A stretch of DNA of 64,000 nucleotides, taken from positions 96,001 through 160,000 of the forward strand of contig CBDCKN010000012.1 in the NCBI GenBank assembly GCA_965218295.1, read 5' to 3'. Numbering within the stretch: the first letter of the stretch is position 1; every line of letters starts with the position of its first letter. Shown in pieces: positions 16,167 to 57,507 of this stretch. Below the pieces are notes generated by a model that saw only the letters and a list, made by a program, of their open reading frames with translations, was not told where the DNA came from and made no database searches. The position numbers and the translations under genes are program-made. Origin of the DNA: Longimicrobiales bacterium (GTDB taxonomy: Bacteria; Gemmatimonadota; Gemmatimonadetes; Longimicrobiales; Gaopeijiaceae).

Positions 16167-16580
16167 TCAGACGCCCTCGACCAGCGTCTCGAAGTCGAGG
16201 TCCTGGCGAAGCGAGTGGAGCACGCTGCAGTACTTGTCGCGGGAGAGCTGGATCGCACGATCCACCTTGGGCCGCGCCTCGGCAGCCACGCCTCCCAAGA
16301 CGAAGGTCAGGCGTATTCGTTTGAAGTAGCGGGGAGGGTCAGAGTTCCGGTCGGCATCGGCGTGAATCTCGAGGGAGCTCACGTCGACGCGGGACTTCTC
16401 GAGAATCATCAGCACGTCGATGCCCATGCAGCCCATGAGCACCAGAAGCAGAGAATCCATCGATGAGGCGCCGGCCTCGCCGGCCCCGTCGATGGTCACC
16501 TCGGGTCCTGACCCCGAGCGGCCCTTGAACACGTCGCGCTGCCCGGTCCAAAGCAGGATCGTCTGTTTAGAAGAGCTCAT
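16167..16580 (-). CDS. OsmC family protein (YhfA-like)
   Basis: GCMGIDV..IL.K and AIQLSRDKYCSV. Confidence 0.88.
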   Translation of the reverse strand: MSSSKQTILLWTGQRDVFKGRSGSGPEVTIDGAGEAGASSMDSLLLVLMGCMGIDVLMILEKSRVDVSSLEIHADADRNSDPPRYFKRIRLTFVLGGVAAEARPKVDRAIQLSRDKYCSVLHSLRQDLDFETLVEGV

Positions 16581-17031
16581 CCTGAGTGGGTTGAGGACCC
16601 TCGGTAGCAGGGTTCGATCCACCCTCTCCGGTGAGCCTGGCGAGGGTTTCCCGGGCATGGGACACGTGCTCACCAGCTTCCTCGGTAGGTGCGTTCTCGA
16701 GAAAGGCACGGAGGTGCGGGATGGCGTCCGGCTCCTGGCCGGCCCTCACGAGGAGGAACGCAAGACCGTAGTGGGCACCGGCGGCATCGGGGTTCTTCTG
16801 GAGCACGTGCCGATACGTCTTCGCGGCCTCCTCGGTCATCCCGATGCGGGTGTACGAGATGGCGATCTGCTGCAGCACCACGGAGTCCCCGGGTGACTCC
16901 TTGAGGGCCAGGCGAAACGAGGTGAGGGCTTCGTGGAACTTGCCCTCCGCCATCAAGGCGATGCCCTCGTCATAGTAGGCGACGCGCCCGGTGTCCCCGG
17001 ATCCGCCGAAAACCTTGTTCCACCACGCCAT
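16567..17031 (-). CDS. Tetratricopeptide repeat protein
   Basis: YYDEGIAL, AHYGLAFLL TPR helices. Confidence 0.8.
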   Translation of the reverse strand: MAWWNKVFGGSGDTGRVAYYDEGIALMAEGKFHEALTSFRLALKESPGDSVVLQQIAISYTRIGMTEEAAKTYRHVLQKNPDAAGAHYGLAFLLVRAGQEPDAIPHLRAFLENAPTEEAGEHVSHARETLARLTGEGGSNPATEGPQPTQDELF

Positions 17032-48706: not shown

Positions 48707-50084
48707 GAGCTAGGATCAAAGGGTGTGTAAAAAGAGAGGCGACGTACCTTTCCGCTGAGTAATAACCAGCGAACTCCGGGTGACAGCCCGGGGGAAAGGA
48801 ACGACGCCTCGTGAGGAAGAATACGGTGGGACCCGAGGGTGAGTCCAGGACGCCCGTGTGGGAAGTTCTGGAAGAAGTGGTTCGGGAGAAGGCGCAGGAG
48901 TTCATTCAACAGATCTTGGAGGAGGAAGTCACGGAGTTGCTAGGGCGAGAGAAGTCAGAGCGCAGGAGGGTGGTGGACGCGACCGAGGGCTACCGCAACG
49001 GATACGGCAAGCCGAGGCGGCTGGCGATGAGCTCGGGCACGATCACACTCCGACGCCCTCGAGTTCGAGGCCTTGAGGAGCGGTTCGAGAGTCGGGTGCT
49101 GCCGTTGTTCGCGAGGCGGACGAAGGAGCTGGGCGCTCTGCTTCCGGAGCTGTATCTGCACGGACTGGCGGAGGGAGACTTCGAGTTGGCGATGCGGGGC
49201 CTGCTGGGCGAGGGGGCACCGCTGTCGAAGTCTTCGATTCGGCGGCTGCGGGCGGGATGGACGGCGGAGTTCGAGGAATGGAGCCAGCGTCGCCTGGAGG
49301 GTCGTGAGGTCGTCTACGTGTGGGCGGACGGGATCTATGTGAAGGCAGGGCTGGAGCGGGACAAAGCGGCGCTGCTGGTGGTGCTGGGTGCCATGCGAGA
49401 CGGGACGAAAGAGGTGTTGGCCCTGAGAGCGGGCTACCGAGAGTCGGTCGAGTCCTGGTCCGAGGTGTTGCGGGACCTGAAGGCACGCGGCATCGAGGCG
49501 CCCCGGCTTCTGATGGCGGACGGTAACGCTGCGATCTGGGGCGCAGTACGGCAGGTATGGCCTGAGGCGGGTGAGCAACGGTGCTGGAACCACAAGATGA
49601 GGAACGTGCTGGACCGACTACCTCAGCGGGAGCAGGGCGAGGCGAAGGATCTTCTCCGGGCCGTGGTCTACGCACCGAGCCGGGCCGAGGCCCTGAAGGC
49701 CCGCGAGGTGTTCGCCCGACGCTATAGGCCGTGGTATCCGAAAGCAGTGGACGTACTCGAGGACGACTGGGAGCGGATGGTAGCGTTCTACGACTTCCCC
49801 GAGGACCACTGGAAGCATCTACGCACGACGAACGTGGTCGAGAGCCCGTTCGCCGCGGTACGGCTCAGGACGACAGCAGCGAAGCGGTTCAAGCGGGTCG
49901 AGAGCGCTACGGCGCTAATCTGGAAGTTGCTCTTGGTGGCTGAGAAGCGGTTCCGAAGGCTCGACGCTCCTCACCTCCTCAAGGACGTATTTGAAGGAAG
50001 AAAGTTCGAAGACGGAAAGCCCGTCTCACACCAACAGCGGAAGAACGCCGCCTAATACGTTTACACACCTATTGACCCAACCTC
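48707..50084 (+). mobile_element. IS256-family insertion sequence (1378 bp)
   Basis: IRs GAGCTAGGATCAAAGGGTGTGTAAA / GAGGTTGGGTCAATAGGTGTGTAAA (20/25); 8-bp target duplication AGGACACG at 48699-48706 and 50085-50092. Confidence 0.95.
48811..50055 (+). CDS. IS256-family transposase
   Basis: YRNGY, YVWADG, LLMADG, QRCWNHK, LRTTNVVESPF (DDE). Confidence 0.95.
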   Translation: MRKNTVGPEGESRTPVWEVLEEVVREKAQEFIQQILEEEVTELLGREKSERRRVVDATEGYRNGYGKPRRLAMSSGTITLRRPRVRGLEERFESRVLPLFARRTKELGALLPELYLHGLAEGDFELAMRGLLGEGAPLSKSSIRRLRAGWTAEFEEWSQRRLEGREVVYVWADGIYVKAGLERDKAALLVVLGAMRDGTKEVLALRAGYRESVESWSEVLRDLKARGIEAPRLLMADGNAAIWGAVRQVWPEAGEQRCWNHKMRNVLDRLPQREQGEAKDLLRAVVYAPSRAEALKAREVFARRYRPWYPKAVDVLEDDWERMVAFYDFPEDHWKHLRTTNVVESPFAAVRLRTTAAKRFKRVESATALIWKLLLVAEKRFRRLDAPHLLKDVFEGRKFEDGKPVSHQQRKNAA

Positions 50085-51136: not shown

Positions 51137-51319
51137 TGGGTACTCCGTATTTCATAGTCCTGGCTAGAAGTTCTCATCGAGCATGGAAACGAATGAGGAG
51201 CCCCGAATGTGACAGGGGGTGGGTGTTGGCATCCTTCCTGCATCTTGTGATCCCCATGTCTGGGCACGACCAACGTGCCAAGGAACCGACCAAATCAGGA
51301 TCCAGGAGCAGGAGGACCG

Positions 51320-52006
51320 ATGATCAACACGGGAACCAGGTCGCGCCTCGGCGTGGCCCTGACCTTTTTCCTTGCCGGCCTCACCGGCGCGTGCGCCCAC
51401 GTGGGCCAGGATCAATTCGACGCCGAGGTCGAGTCTCTCCGTCGCGAGATCGAAGAGGGCGACCGGGCCAACCAGCAGCGCGTGGACGACCTTGGCCGGC
51501 GCACCGACGAGCACATGGAGGAGCTCTCGGCTCGTCTGGACGGGCTGACCCAAAGTCTTTCGGAGCTCCGAGGTGAGTTCGACGTCACGGTCGAGCGGCT
51601 GGAGAGCGCCGTTCGCTTCGACGTACCGGTGTACTTCAGATTCGACAAGGCCACTCTCCGGCCCGAGGATCTTCCGGTCCTGGACCGGTTCAGCAGGGTC
51701 GTGACGGAATACTACGCCGACGTCCTCCTCACCGTGGAGGGGTTCACCGATCCCGCCGGGTCTGTGGAGTACAACCGCCGGCTCGGATTACGGCGGGCGG
51801 CGGCGGTCCGGGGATACCTGGTGGAGTCCGGCGGCTTTCAGGAGAACCGGGTCAGAGCCGTCAGCTACGGAGAGGACGTGGCCCGCCTCGTGGCGCCCGG
51901 ACAGGCGGGCCGCGACGCAGGCTGGGAGAATCGCCGAGTGGCCCTCGTCATCGAGCATCTCGGTGTGGTGAGCGATCCGGCGCCTATGACGGGAGGAGCG
52001 CGCTAG
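51320..52006 (+). CDS. OmpA/Pal-like peptidoglycan-binding lipoprotein
   Basis: Lipobox, coiled-coil, YFRFDKA, VEGFTDP.G..EYN..L..RRA, VSYGE, NRRV. Confidence 0.9.
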   Translation: MINTGTRSRLGVALTFFLAGLTGACAHVGQDQFDAEVESLRREIEEGDRANQQRVDDLGRRTDEHMEELSARLDGLTQSLSELRGEFDVTVERLESAVRFDVPVYFRFDKATLRPEDLPVLDRFSRVVTEYYADVLLTVEGFTDPAGSVEYNRRLGLRRAAAVRGYLVESGGFQENRVRAVSYGEDVARLVAPGQAGRDAGWENRRVALVIEHLGVVSDPAPMTGGAR

Positions 52007-52468
52007 CCCGACTCCTCCATGACCAGTTCCGTGGTGATGTCGATGCACCCCGCTATCGACTTGTATACGGGGCATTTCGAGTGATGGAACTCGTGCACGC
52101 GCCTGGCCGTCTGCTCGGCCTCGGCGTCTCCCACCAAACGATAGCGGACGTGGATCCGCTTGATCACGAACGCCGTCCTCATTCTCAACTTCACCTCTCA
52201 CTTCGGCCGCGAGCCGTCCGTCGCCAGCCGAGATCCCACGCGCCTCCAGCGCGCCTCCGAGGGTGCCGATCAGTCAGCCGCCGGTGGCGGCCACGACGTG
52301 ATCGAGCGTGGTGGCGAACTCCTCGTCAGGGTCGACTCTGTAGTGTTCTGCGATGGCGCCATGCACGCCGAACATCGCGGGCTCCGCCGTGGCGGGAAGG
52401 TAGGCTCGGCGCACCGGACCCTTCACGCGCTCGATCCGGATGTCCGCCGTGTAGACCACGTCACCCAT
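52003..52468 (-). CDS. OsmC-like probable selenoprotein (in-frame TGA 52274-52276; apparent frameshift at about 52169)
   Basis: …TTLDHVVAATGG[TGA]LIGTLGGALEARGI…EVENEDG|VIKRIHVRYRL…HHSKCPVYKSI. TGA sits where the first OsmC Cys is expected; hairpin follows. Confidence 0.75.
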
Positions 52469-52668
52469 GCTGGCTTCTCCATACGGTTGAGGTTCCCGAT
52501 GGTATCGGTCGATCACCGGCCGCGGCAAGCCGACCACAGGCTCCGGCACCGAACGAGCGGCAGCGGGCCGGAGTTCCGTGGAACCTCTGCCCGGTCAGGG
52601 ATCGTATGTAAGGGATGTGTGGCAAGGGTCGTTGAACTGCGACCGTCGATCAGAGGGGAGGGTGCGGC

Positions 52669-53583
52669 ATGAGCGAGCGTGGTCTGATCCCCATCATCTG
52701 GAGTCCCCGGTACGAAGTGAACATTGGGAAGCACGTCTTTCCGGTTGAGAAGTACCGGTTGGTCAAGGAGCGCCTCGAGGACGGAGGCTGGCTCGAGAAG
52801 GCCCGTCTGGAGTCGCCCGAGCCTGCCACCGACGATGCCATCCTCCGAGTTCACACGCGGGCCTATTGGGAGAAGATCACTACAGGGGCCTTCACGCCCT
52901 CCGAAGAGCGCATCCTGGAGGTCCCGTTCTCCGACGACCTCAGGGAGGCCTCGGTCCTTTGCGCCGGCGGCACCACGCAGGCAGGGCGGCTGGCGCTGGC
53001 AGATGGGAGAGCCGTTCACCTGGGCGGCGGATTCCATCACGCCCTCGCCGATCACGGAGAGGGCTTCTGCCTATTGAACGACATCGCCATCGCGGCAGCG
53101 ACCCTGCTGGCCGAGAGCGCCACGGAGCGCATCGCCGTAGTCGACCTGGACGTACACCACGGAAACGGCACGGCCGCCATCTTCGCCGATGAGCCCCGCG
53201 TCTTCACCTTCTCCATGCACCACCAGTGGAACTACCCTGCCCTGAAGCCGCCGGGAGACCTCGACGTGGGCCTGGAGGACGGCGTCGGCGACGAGGAGTA
53301 CTTGGGACTCCTACGGGAGCACCTACCCCGCATTCTTGAGGAATTCCGGCCGGAGCTCATCCTGTATCTCGCCGGAGCCGACCCGTACGAAGCCGATCAA
53401 TTGGGGGGGCTGGCGCTCTCACTGGAGGGCCTGAGAGCCCGGGACGAGTTGGTCCTGGAGACCGCCGGAGAAGCGGGTGTGGGCGTGGCCGTCACCCTCG
53501 CTGGAGGCTACGCCATTCGACCCTCGGATACGGTGGCGATCCACTGCGGAACCGTTGAGGCCGCCCTGGCGTCCGACCCATGA
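52669..53583 (+). CDS. Histone deacetylase family protein
   Basis: HVFP..KY, GGGFHHA, GFC..ND, DLDVHHGNGT, GADP, LAGGY. Confidence 0.95.
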   Translation: MSERGLIPIIWSPRYEVNIGKHVFPVEKYRLVKERLEDGGWLEKARLESPEPATDDAILRVHTRAYWEKITTGAFTPSEERILEVPFSDDLREASVLCAGGTTQAGRLALADGRAVHLGGGFHHALADHGEGFCLLNDIAIAAATLLAESATERIAVVDLDVHHGNGTAAIFADEPRVFTFSMHHQWNYPALKPPGDLDVGLEDGVGDEEYLGLLREHLPRILEEFRPELILYLAGADPYEADQLGGLALSLEGLRARDELVLETAGEAGVGVAVTLAGGYAIRPSDTVAIHCGTVEAALASDP

Positions 53584-55096: not shown

Positions 55097-57226
55097 CTAC
55101 TCGAACGAGCCAGGAACCGCCTCCTCCATCTCGGCCGCCACTTCCTCGGCCAGGCGCATCGTCGAGAGATCCAGGTCGTAGTCGGGCACCTCACGGGGCT
55201 GGAGCTTCTCGATCAGCTCCCGGAACTCGCGACCGGAGAGCCCCATGTCTTTGAGCTCGTCGGGCGTAAGACCCCCACCGTCCGACCTAGCTCGCACGCC
55301 GTCGTCATCACCCTCCAGGAGGTGGCGCAGCGCCGTCATCTCGGCTCGGCTCATGGGCTCGGCGCCCACGCTGTAGTCGAGCCACGCCTCGTAGCTGAGG
55401 GGAGCCACCCGCTTCAACATGCCGGCCATTACCCGTGCGAACTCCTGGATCTCCCACTGGGAATGGGGATCGACCCGGAGGGTCAGGAAGTGCAAGAGGT
55501 TGTGAAGGTCGATCTTCCAATACCACTGCGTATAGGTGGAAAGAGGAAGATCGATGCGGGCGAGCTCCCGAGCGACCTCCTCCTCCAACATCCATCGGTA
55601 CCCCTCGGAGGCCTCGGCACGGACCCGCTCCCAGCGCGCCACCGCCTTCTCGTACAGCTCCGCAGGAGCGTGCTCGGGCCGCCGGCCCTGACGGTTGTCC
55701 GCACTCTGGAGCGCGAAGTGGTCCAAGTCGGCCTTGTAAAAGAGGAGGGGCATCAACGAATAACGGCCGCTGTACTCGTTTACCGAATTGTGTGTGACGA
55801 TCCCGTTGGCGATAAAGTTGTGAGATGGGCCCTCCACCTCCAGGTCGTAGGTCTCGCGTATCCCCAAATACTCGAAACGCTCGACGCGAACGAGGCGAGT
55901 GCTGGTGAGCTTGTTCCACGGTACTCGCGGCCGCCTTTTCCATTCCGTATGAATCGGGCCGCCACCGAGCCGTTCGACGTAGTCCAGCTCATCCCCTGCG
56001 ACCCTTCGATGGCAGGGCGCACAGAGGGTCGTGAGGTTCCCAAGGTCCCTGGCTCTCGATTCGTCGGCCCAGACGGGGACGATGTGATGGCAGTGCAGCT
56101 CATCGGCCCTCTGGGCACACAGCTGGCAGGTCCATCCGTTCTCGGCGTGGACCTTGTGAGCGACCTGCGTGGTCCATCGCCCGATACCATCCCGCTCCGA
56201 GGAGCCCCCTCCGCGCCAGAAGTTGGAAGCAAGCCCGCTCCGTGATCTCCGGTTCGCCTCGACCCACTCGGCGGAGAGTTGCCGGGGGCCGAGCTCATAA
56301 GTGAGGTTCCTGTTCCATGGCGAATCACCCTCGGTGAAGCATCCGCGACCAGGCTCCGTGAGCTTGTGGCGCGTCAGCCACTTTCTGATCGTGTGGTACG
56401 AAACACCGCAATCTTCCGCGATGTAACGAATGTCCCGCCTCTGCTCGTTGTACTGTCGCTGGAGCCACTTCTTGTCCTGGCAGAGAGCCGGAGCTTCGGC
56501 TACGAGGCCGTTCACATGGACGTAGTGGTCTCCCGCCTGCCAAACAGCCCGCCCACCCTTCTCCTCGAGCCCGGTGGCTTGATGAAGCGTCCTCCATCCA
56601 TCGGCGAATCTGAAGCGGTGGTCCGCTGTAGCCGTGATCTCCTTCCCGTCGGCCAGAACCATCCGGAATACGTGCTTTGGGCCGTTCTTAAAGACATCCA
56701 CGACTCGGGTGTGGCCGATCCGCCCCGTCTCCTCGTCCATCTGACGAAGCCGCATGCCCTTCACACGGTCGCGCCGGAAGTACGGGTTCCTCTGTTTGTC
56801 GGGACGATGACGATTGACGGTCGGCTGAAATCGCCTCCACACGTCCTCGATGGGCAGCTTGTAGAGCTGATTTCCCCGTCGCTGAATGCCTCCGGGAAGG
56901 TCGAAGTACACCTCGGTCCCCTCCGCCAGGCAGGCCGTGCGATGTCGGATCCACTGGCGCGCCACGAACATGGGCATGGCACAGTGGAACTTGACCTCCA
57001 CCATCTCGCTAGGCGTCGTGTGGTAGTGCCTGCGCAGATACCGGATCAAGCCCCGAGTCTGGCTTACCTTCCGGGTGCCGTAGCCATAGCTGACGCGGGC
57101 GGCCCTCTCCACGTCGTCGTCTGTGCCCATGTAGTCGACCAGGGCCACGAAACCGTGGTCGAGAACGGGAAAATACCCCCCGAGAATCTCCTCCGCGGCG
57201 GGGCTCGTAGGTCTCTTGGTTTCCAT
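55097..57226 (-). CDS. thyX: FAD-dependent thymidylate synthase containing an intein
   Basis: AARVSY, H.TPSE, FVARQWIRHRTA|intein|SVNEYSGRY, RELARIDLP, HSQWEI. Confidence 0.95.
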   Translation of the reverse strand: METKRPTSPAAEEILGGYFPVLDHGFVALVDYMGTDDDVERAARVSYGYGTRKVSQTRGLIRYLRRHYHTTPSEMVEVKFHCAMPMFVARQWIRHRTACLAEGTEVYFDLPGGIQRRGNQLYKLPIEDVWRRFQPTVNRHRPDKQRNPYFRRDRVKGMRLRQMDEETGRIGHTRVVDVFKNGPKHVFRMVLADGKEITATADHRFRFADGWRTLHQATGLEEKGGRAVWQAGDHYVHVNGLVAEAPALCQDKKWLQRQYNEQRRDIRYIAEDCGVSYHTIRKWLTRHKLTEPGRGCFTEGDSPWNRNLTYELGPRQLSAEWVEANRRSRSGLASNFWRGGGSSERDGIGRWTTQVAHKVHAENGWTCQLCAQRADELHCHHIVPVWADESRARDLGNLTTLCAPCHRRVAGDELDYVERLGGGPIHTEWKRRPRVPWNKLTSTRLVRVERFEYLGIRETYDLEVEGPSHNFIANGIVTHNSVNEYSGRYSLMPLLFYKADLDHFALQSADNRQGRRPEHAPAELYEKAVARWERVRAEASEGYRWMLEEEVARELARIDLPLSTYTQWYWKIDLHNLLHFLTLRVDPHSQWEIQEFARVMAGMLKRVAPLSYEAWLDYSVGAEPMSRAEMTALRHLLEGDDDGVRARSDGGGLTPDELKDMGLSGREFRELIEKLQPREVPDYDLDLSTMRLAEEVAAEMEEAVPGSFE
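55787..56932 (-). mobile_element. Intein (382 aa) with HTH and HNH endonuclease
   Basis: Starts CLAEGT; block B TADHRF; ends TYDLEV...HNFIANGIVTHN/S; internal CQLC..HCHHI...NLTTLCAPCH. Confidence 0.93.
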
Positions 57227-57507
57227 ACTATGGGGTTCGCGGCCGCAGCCGGTGAGACGACGAAAGTGCCGGCGGAATAGATCCAAAGGGATTCCCACCC
57301 GCAAGCGGGAGGGTGCACTTGTTGGCCACCGGATACTCGCGGATCGTGGAGAGCCCAAGGGCCGGCCACGCTCGGCGGCGCCGGCAGACTTTCCTGGACA
57401 ACGTCGGGAGCCACTGGCGATCTTGGAAGCGTGGCTCGGGACGGCTGAAGCGGATCAGTCGTCATACTGGAATCCTACCCACCTCGTTGCAGCCTGCCAT
57501 AGACGCC

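Follow-up and report, generated by a model that had tools for sequence, protein, structure and literature searches.

Introduction

OsmC and Ohr proteins act as homodimers, which attack the hydroperoxide, close with a resolving cysteine and are reduced by lipoylated proteins, as set out in the sections cited here of PMC5384416 and PMC8945050. According to the same sections, an Arg and a Glu are required in Ohr and in OsmC proper and are absent from the Ohr-like/YhfA proteins, the catalytic Arg being located in the beta1-beta2 loop of Ohr and before helix 1 of OsmC. In PMC5384416 the two-residue redox pair is called the hallmark of the OsmC/Ohr family, and one Ohr-like/YhfA protein without Arg/Glu is reported there to have had no peroxidase activity.

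Selenocysteine (Sec), for which UGA is decoded in bacteria by SelB and tRNA-Sec (PMC13188914), has also been described in this family. An 'OsmC-like protein' selenoprotein with the motif UxxT was reported in 2005 (Zhang, Fomenko and Gladyshev; PMC1088965) and again in the GOS work of 2008 (PMC2398784). It is the sole OsmC entry in the accessible parts of the catalogues of 2022 (PMC9312934) and 2026 (PMC13188914), and the one OsmC row in the deep-Sep supplements (PMC12013277) belongs to this same family, which is represented by MCS5647933.1. Compared by eye, the UxxT sequences and the members of NF041052 (OsmC_like_Se) share the pattern P-x-PLxY...GF-U-LLT...GCF.

The DNA analysed here, referred to as the window, is a stretch of 64,000 nucleotides from a Longimicrobiales bacterium (assembly GCA_965218295.1, contig CBDCKN010000012.1). 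With a probability of about 80%, one of its loci is a single gene for a 155-residue protein of the OsmC/Ohr fold, in which a UGA is read as selenocysteine and a second break in the frame is an assembly error. The gene apparently belongs to a distinct and uncatalogued subfamily of OsmC-fold selenoproteins; no literature on this branch was found in open papers, the supplements searched being those of PMC1088965 and PMC12013277.

Comparison with known families

The present family resembles the UxxT/NF041052 proteins in the OsmC fold, in having Sec at the same peroxidatic column and a Cys downstream, and in the existence of Cys orthologues. The motif, however, is TTLDY-x5-GG-U-LxGT-x2-GALEAR...CP (UxxxT) instead of the P-x-PLxY...GF-U-LLTQ/N...GC[FY] of the UxxT family, and the profile-profile identity is about 15%. 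With its cut-off of 95 bits, NF041052 gave no match for an intact relative or at either locus of the genome, and it was matched weakly by 98 of the 123 aligned members, with a best E-value of 3.3e-8 and well under that cut-off. In a tree of 58 rows the present family (43 rows, support 94/86) and the NF041052 group (11 rows, 98/94) stand apart as two groups, joined by long branches. The tree does not resolve the inner branching of the family, nor with it the direction of the Sec/Cys changes.

A common ancestry of the Sec state with the UxxT family is possible, because Sec occupies the same column in both. Slightly favoured is the reading that the family represents a second OsmC-fold selenoprotein lineage, which would have gained Sec independently of the marine UxxT proteins and would have its own Arg/His/His/Tyr/Asp site; such a lineage would be almost always Sec-encoded, often with two paralogues, present in at least four phyla and hidden by split or Trp annotation. 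The family was found in 87 of 301 genomes of the Gemmatimonadota group and in 46 of 401 of the phylum to which a Solirubrobacterales genome (locus L058) belongs.

With the OsmC and Ohr peroxidases (TIGR03562, TIGR03561; structures 1ukk, 1qwi and 1usp) the fold and the peroxidatic and resolving positions are shared, but these enzymes have Cys where Sec is found here, a spacing of about 60 residues against 68, and the canonical Glu, whose column in the present family is without Glu; an extra helix (37-43) is also found here. The best structural matches are Ohr-like/YhfA proteins (COG1765-type; 2onf, 1ml8, 1lql and 1vla), with 2onf at Z 15.3 (rmsd 2.0, 139 residues) and 1ml8 at Z 14.5, and these likewise have a pair of redox residues and lack the canonical Arg/Glu. 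They differ in sequence, the identity being 11-14%, and PRK10738 matches 7 of the 123 members (best E-value 0.0003). The window itself encodes a Cys/Cys protein of the general YhfA/Ohr-like type, at most 23% identical to the selenoprotein family.

Organization of the locus

Starting from an ATG at 52468-52466 on the minus strand, the frame continues through the TGA at codon 65 as AATGG-U, just as the preliminary description had stated; the translation reads ...AATGG-*-LIGTLGGALEARGI and this first frame runs on to EVENEDGV. The second cysteine, which had been placed in a CPV motif, is also where it was expected, since the second frame, entered after the shift between 52170 and 52169, carries ...SKCPVY... 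up to the stop TAG at 52005-52003. A further Cys/Cys OsmC noted from 16167 onwards does exist as a stop-free ORF; it is not the Cys orthologue of the selenoprotein gene, and its identity to every tree row is low (Table 1).

Table 1. Features of the selenoprotein locus and related genes, in positions of the window
Feature	Position	Strand	Remarks
Predicted OsmC-fold selenoprotein gene	52003..52468	-	155 aa in intact same-genus copies; here 2-nt loss at 52169/52170
In-frame TGA, codon 65, predicted selenocysteine, peroxidatic-Cys column	52274..52276	-	aligns with Cys57 of 1ukk
Resolving Cys codon (Cys133 of intact protein), CP motif	52072..52074	-	68 residues after Sec
GGAG, putative Shine-Dalgarno-like element, judged from sequence	52477..52480	-	8 nt before ATG
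Arg20 codon	52409..52411	-	invariant in 123/123 aligned members; candidate counterpart, by position, of the Ohr catalytic Arg
Asp56 codon	52301..52303	-	invariant in 123/123; follows the column of the canonical OsmC/Ohr Glu directly
Bacterial SECIS-type hairpin, 6-bp stem, 5-nt loop UGGAG	52238..52254	-	loop starts 26 nt after UGA
Frameshift; read sets and same-genus genomes have two bases more	52169..52170	-	likely assembly error
Convergent neighbour, OmpA-family protein	51275..52006	+	local synteny only, 8/84 loci
Divergent neighbour, histone-deacetylase-domain protein	52669..53583	+	local synteny only, 6/84 loci
Cys/Cys OsmC-family gene, stop-free	16167..16709	-	unrelated; <=23% identity to any tree row

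The TAG stop codons of the selenoprotein gene and of the convergent OmpA-family gene overlap in the sequence CTAG (52003-52006). Neither a sigma-70-like promoter nor an intrinsic terminator was found between 51900 and 52750, and a search for a conserved operon across 84 loci gave none: none of the OmpA, deacetylase and thyX neighbours is shared by more than 12 of the 84, all of them close relatives, in an analysis from which the three largest clusters, being the gene's own frames or low-complexity chains, were left out. A search of a plasmid collection at an E-value of 1e-8 gave no homolog of the family. The RNA runs X17 and X18 contain the gene of a related strain, on contigs that have no bearing on transcription.

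Fold, active site and probable function

In the fold and profile work the intact protein of locus L008 (P0002) stood in for the broken copy of the window. It matches PF02566 with 51 bits, against a gathering cut-off of 27.5, and its residue 65 and its CP motif align respectively with the peroxidatic and the resolving Cys of the OsmC of T. thermophilus (1ukk). A structure model built with the family alignment (123 sequences, from 157 complete ORFs after removal of near-duplicates at 85%) reached a pLDDT of 97.5, and the poor model from the single sequence (58.6) was set aside. When this structure was compared with solved ones by Foldseek and VIA-align, the top eleven matches were all OsmC/Ohr-family chains, with one more such chain in 14th place and unrelated rows at Z <=8.2. 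On the evidence of this model and of the profile match, the protein is a member of the OsmC/Ohr superfamily (PF02566).

Throughout the 123 sequences Arg20, Asp56, Gly68, Thr69, Gly92, Cys133 and Pro134 are invariant, as is the Sec column, and His36, His42 and Tyr43 are nearly so; the extra short helix 37-43 of the model carries conserved His/Tyr. Leu55 occupies the column of the canonical catalytic Glu, which precedes the peroxidatic Cys by 10 residues, and the invariant Asp56 is one column later. Near the start of strand 2 is Arg20, in sequence not far from where Ohr has its catalytic Arg.

That Sec65 and Cys133 constitute a redox selenol/thiol pair is well supported. In the mechanism proposed, the complex of SelB, GTP and Sec-tRNA would bind the G-containing hairpin loop and decode the UGA, as is to be expected from established bacterial Sec biology. 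By analogy with Ohr/OsmC chemistry, Sec65 of a presumed homodimer would then attack ROOH, the oxidised Sec65 would condense with Cys133 into a selenenyl-sulfide, and a dithiol, for instance that of a lipoylated protein, would reduce it again. The canonical Arg/Glu pair might be replaced by Arg20 and Asp56 together with His36, His42 and Tyr43.

Hydroperoxide reduction is the most likely use of such a pair, and we favour it to a reasonable degree, by analogy with the known enzymes. It is less likely, although deserving of attention, that the Sec65/Cys133 pair carries out another redox or transfer chemistry, such as sulfur/selenium transfer or the reduction of some other oxidant, at a site formed from Arg20, His36, His42, Tyr43 and Asp56. 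This would fit the missing canonical Glu, the 10-18% identity of P0002 to the solved structures of the family, the lack of a stated activity for the two best structural matches and the distance from every OsmC/Ohr NCBIfam model, all of which are far under their cut-offs (TIGR03562, 19.9 bits against 85.8; TIGR03561, 12.6 against 88.85); moreover, Ohr-like proteins without Arg/Glu can be inactive, as in the case reported in PMC5384416. Nevertheless, the two-chalcogen pair, given as the family hallmark in the cited part of that paper, is invariant here, Arg20 is placed close to the Ohr catalytic Arg, and there are no conserved neighbours that would suggest another pathway.

Integrity of the coding sequence

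The two bases absent between 52170 and 52169 in the assembly were present in all eight read sets compared, seven of which show them as an insertion and one (X17) as a loose end, and none of the pieces listed that bridge 52169 is without them. On the two sides of the site, pieces of run X1 agree with the window without any mismatch over 270 and 275 nt. The two bases are also found in two genomes of the same genus (G001 and G002; loci L007 and L008) and in locus L036, whose identity to the window in the region of the gene is about 95.5%; these three loci, which need not be mutually independent, encode an uninterrupted protein of 155 residues.

The preliminary description had allowed for either an error or an inactivation near 52169, and reads and same-genus genomes alike point to the former. 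An inactivation would mean that the selenoprotein family is real and that the copy of this strain was lost recently, the 2-nt deletion being genuine. The assembly does show the deletion, no run is certain to come from the source sample, and the gene could be dispensable in a genome which also has a TGA-containing paralogue on contig C10 and a Cys/Cys OsmC. However, such a loss is improbable in view of the eight runs, X1 included. In addition, a second small indel at 52547-52549, where one base is missing compared with both same-genus genomes, is contradicted in the same way by all six covering runs and is probably another assembly indel, and the gene is free of other decay, its first 100 residues being 95% identical to the same-genus copies. 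Eleven non-triplet indels were counted between the window and both same-genus genomes over up to 35.6 kb, genic and intergenic positions taken together, and give no firm indication of assembly quality. An assembly error, with the gene intact in the living strain, is thus very probable, and is not put higher because no run has been shown to be the source sample.

Codon 65 across homologs

At the DNA level, column 65 was occupied by TGA in 203 of 212 loci, by TGC in eight and by TGT in one, and never by TGG; the loci are related and partly duplicated, with 183 distinct 45-nt sequences among the 203, and the counts overstate their independence. Among 61 related genomes, 40 matches were found in 28, each with one TGA, and the 30 that were fetched all have it at column 65. 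In the 87 carriers among the 301 genomes of the phylum, every match has one TGA save two half-gene fragments. A scan of metagenome DNA, the pattern of which allowed TGA, TGG, TGC and TGT at the column and fixed the neighbouring residues, gave TGA in 120 of the 120 matches listed (at least 120 in all). Codon 65 very likely encodes selenocysteine, and the proposal of a selenoprotein with UGA at the peroxidatic position has gained support from these loci.

Cys orthologues could be read in the DNA at nine loci (TGC/TGT) from six genomes, all in the phylum of the Solirubrobacterales genome; the 17 Cys proteins from databases, available as proteins only, were left out of this count. One database cluster with Cys at the column also has a member of 93 aa, the length of a split fragment. 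In the Cys group formed by L195, L211, L214 and L216 the near-invariant His36 is replaced by Pro, and the switch to Cys may go together with a changed active site there. Two full-length database homologs (P0047 and P0049), available as protein records only, have Ala at the Sec column and keep the resolving Cys.

In the public annotation the family appears as two small genes. NCBI keeps a 66-aa hypothetical protein (MCH8873500.1) beside a 90-aa OsmC family protein (MCH8873499.1), and an ordinary stop would make the present locus a coupled pair of 64 and about 90 residues. The adjacent accessions fit such a pair, as do the 31 of the best 120 of 321 database matches that start at or just past the column, and the ATG directly after the TGA in 6 of 54 loci. 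The reading is nonetheless very improbable: the codon after the TGA is CTC, CTA or CTT, none of them a start codon, in 16 of 54 and in 44 of 120 loci; TAA or TAG never occurred at the column in 92 loci fetched without fixing the first two bases; unsplit TGC/TGT orthologues exist; the carriers of the gene track the Sec machinery; and splitting would remove the catalytic residue.

Among the best 120 of the 321 database proteins, column 65 is Trp in 66, Cys in 17, Ala in two, Gly in two and Leu in one, and is not covered by 32. A non-Cys residue such as Trp had been named in the preliminary description as a finding that would speak against Sec, and Trp is indeed frequent among these proteins, but closely similar loci read as DNA have TGA. 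Trp at this column is best explained as a genetic-code artefact, gene callers probably changing to code 4 on short contigs. The gene's own terminator is TGA in 79 of 174 loci, and TGA is therefore a working stop in those organisms. A recoding of TGA, to Trp under genetic code 4 or to Gly under code 25, for which only the Trp and Gly of the database homologs speak, has next to no probability and was rejected, being largely refuted by the absence of TGG from the 120 metagenome matches listed and from all 212 loci, by Trp proteins up to 97.6% identical to loci with TGA in the DNA, by the use of TGA as terminator, and by the genome's UCA-anticodon tRNA, which is called as tRNA-Sec.

Selenocysteine machinery

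The search for selA, selB, selC and selD proposed in the preliminary description recovered all four in the genome: a tRNA-Sec (selC), and selA, selB and selD with 553, 330 and 371 bits, the proteins being over the curated cut-offs. The SelD gene itself contains an in-frame TGA.

Co-occurrence is given as counts without a P value, kin genomes not being independent. Among the 301 genomes of the phylum, selA was found in all 87 carriers, the 56 genomes that gave no selA match are all without the gene, and selA occurs without the selenoprotein gene in 158, of which one (G208) is unpublished and supports no conclusion here. In the 61 relatives, 26 of the 28 carriers have selA; the two carriers without a match (G009 and G010, 78% and 88% complete) both have a TGA-containing SelD, and G010 also SelB. 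In the phylum of L058, the 46 genomes with the TGA form include 45 with selA and 44 with a selB match, and G586, which has the TGA form and no match to either, gives a tRNA-Sec match of 80 bits. The Cys-only genomes of that phylum have selA in none of six cases, a count that takes in neither the background rate of selA nor completeness. In these sets the UGA form is confined to Sec-decoding genomes. Matches to Rfam RF01852 of 46-54 bits in Cys-only genomes, where three of the four examined passed the cut-off, were set aside as unspecific, since a control exceeded the cut-off in 5 of 14 well-known genomes.

SECIS-type hairpin

The stem that had been noted 19 nt past the TGA, with G at loop position 2, is borne out in place and sequence, and consists of GCGCGC (+20 to +25), the loop TGGAG (+26 to +30) and GCGCGT (+31 to +36), at 52254-52238. 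The consensus in the legend to Fig. 2A of PMC13188914 gives a loop of 3-9 nt with G in its first two positions, a stem of 4-16 bp, a distance of 16-37 nt from the UGA and an energy below -7.5 kcal/mol; the present hairpin falls within it, with a 5-nt loop starting at +26, G at position 2, six pairs and -8.9 kcal/mol.

Taken singly, the hairpin is not beyond chance. Folding of the single sequence against shuffles gave no support for it (z-scores of +1.6, +1.1 and -0.2), and a simple bSECIS filter is passed by 222 of 2998 (7.4%) random TGA triplets of the genome. It is the comparison across homologs that supports the hairpin, the same filter being passed by 192 of 203 TGA homologs against one of nine Cys homologs. 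The complete set of six pairs occurs in 184 of the 203 TGA loci and GG is found at +27/+28 of the loop in 186, against none of the nine Cys loci in either case; the contrast is somewhat weakened by the small number of Cys loci and the greater divergence of their proteins. The hairpin is kept in the UGA forms and lost in the Cys forms.

The six pairs are retained in 54 of 54 loci (L006-L059), in eight of which the G-C pair at +24/+32 has become A-U, a covariation made up of a synonymous substitution in one partner and of one that turns Ala into Val in the other; these eight are all members of the paralogue group and may go back to one event. At the third positions +21, +24, +27 and +33, within the hairpin, the entropy is 0.41-0.56 bits against 1.27-1.77 at four third positions a little upstream of it, so that these synonymous sites of the hairpin are nearly frozen.

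The lower pairing of CCC with GGG, also put forward in the preliminary description, is predicted in the window sequence, but as a conserved element it was rejected, being complete in only 38 of the 203 TGA loci. The hairpin differs from the bacterial SECIS consensus in having no conserved lower stem and in that a subset of homologs folds a longer, shifted one. Nineteen of the 203 TGA loci are without the full 6-bp stem and 14 of these have four pairs or fewer, most of which fold a longer alternative hairpin. In L062, L100, L123, L147, L181, L186, L189, L193, L197 and L199 the short stem is degraded and the longer hairpin extends from about +15 to +46, with the loop UCGAG, UUGAG or UCGAA; from its sequence, it is possibly an alternative SECIS form.

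Implications

The decoding mechanism is a standard one, and the literature on OsmC-like selenoproteins goes back to 2005. What the present family adds is a widespread branch of the bacterial selenoproteome, together with the correction of a systematic annotation error, since it stands in the databases as fragments of 64-66 and 86-96 residues or with Trp at the catalytic site. With both Sec and Cys orthologues of a single OsmC-fold protein occurring in nature, the contribution of selenium to this scaffold can be tested directly, and a route is opened to the function of those little-understood Ohr-like/YhfA proteins that lack the Arg/Glu pair. Should the family prove to be a second, independent lineage, it would be among the commoner missed bacterial selenoproteins and would show a peroxidase scaffold other than the thioredoxin fold in a naturally occurring Sec form.

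Other features of the genome

A second family member lies outside the window (G000:C10:52201-52656, plus strand); it is 33-36% identical, likewise has TGA at column 65 and shows the A-U form of the hairpin. Paralogues of this type recur across the phylum, often with the first copy in the same genome. Within the window, a 753-aa ThyX-like ORF (55097-57358, minus strand) appears to be interrupted by an insert which starts with CLAEG, ends with VTHN before Ser and bears an HNH-like motif, and which looks like an intein from its sequence. A 414-aa ORF (48811-50055, plus strand), in a stretch outside the L036 alignments, presumably resembles an IS256-type transposase. Elsewhere in the genome, ARAGORN reported a tRNA whose anticodon field has four bases (agca) at G000:C13:71136-71210, and 18 tRNA genes are clustered within about 4 kb at C9:276539-280522.
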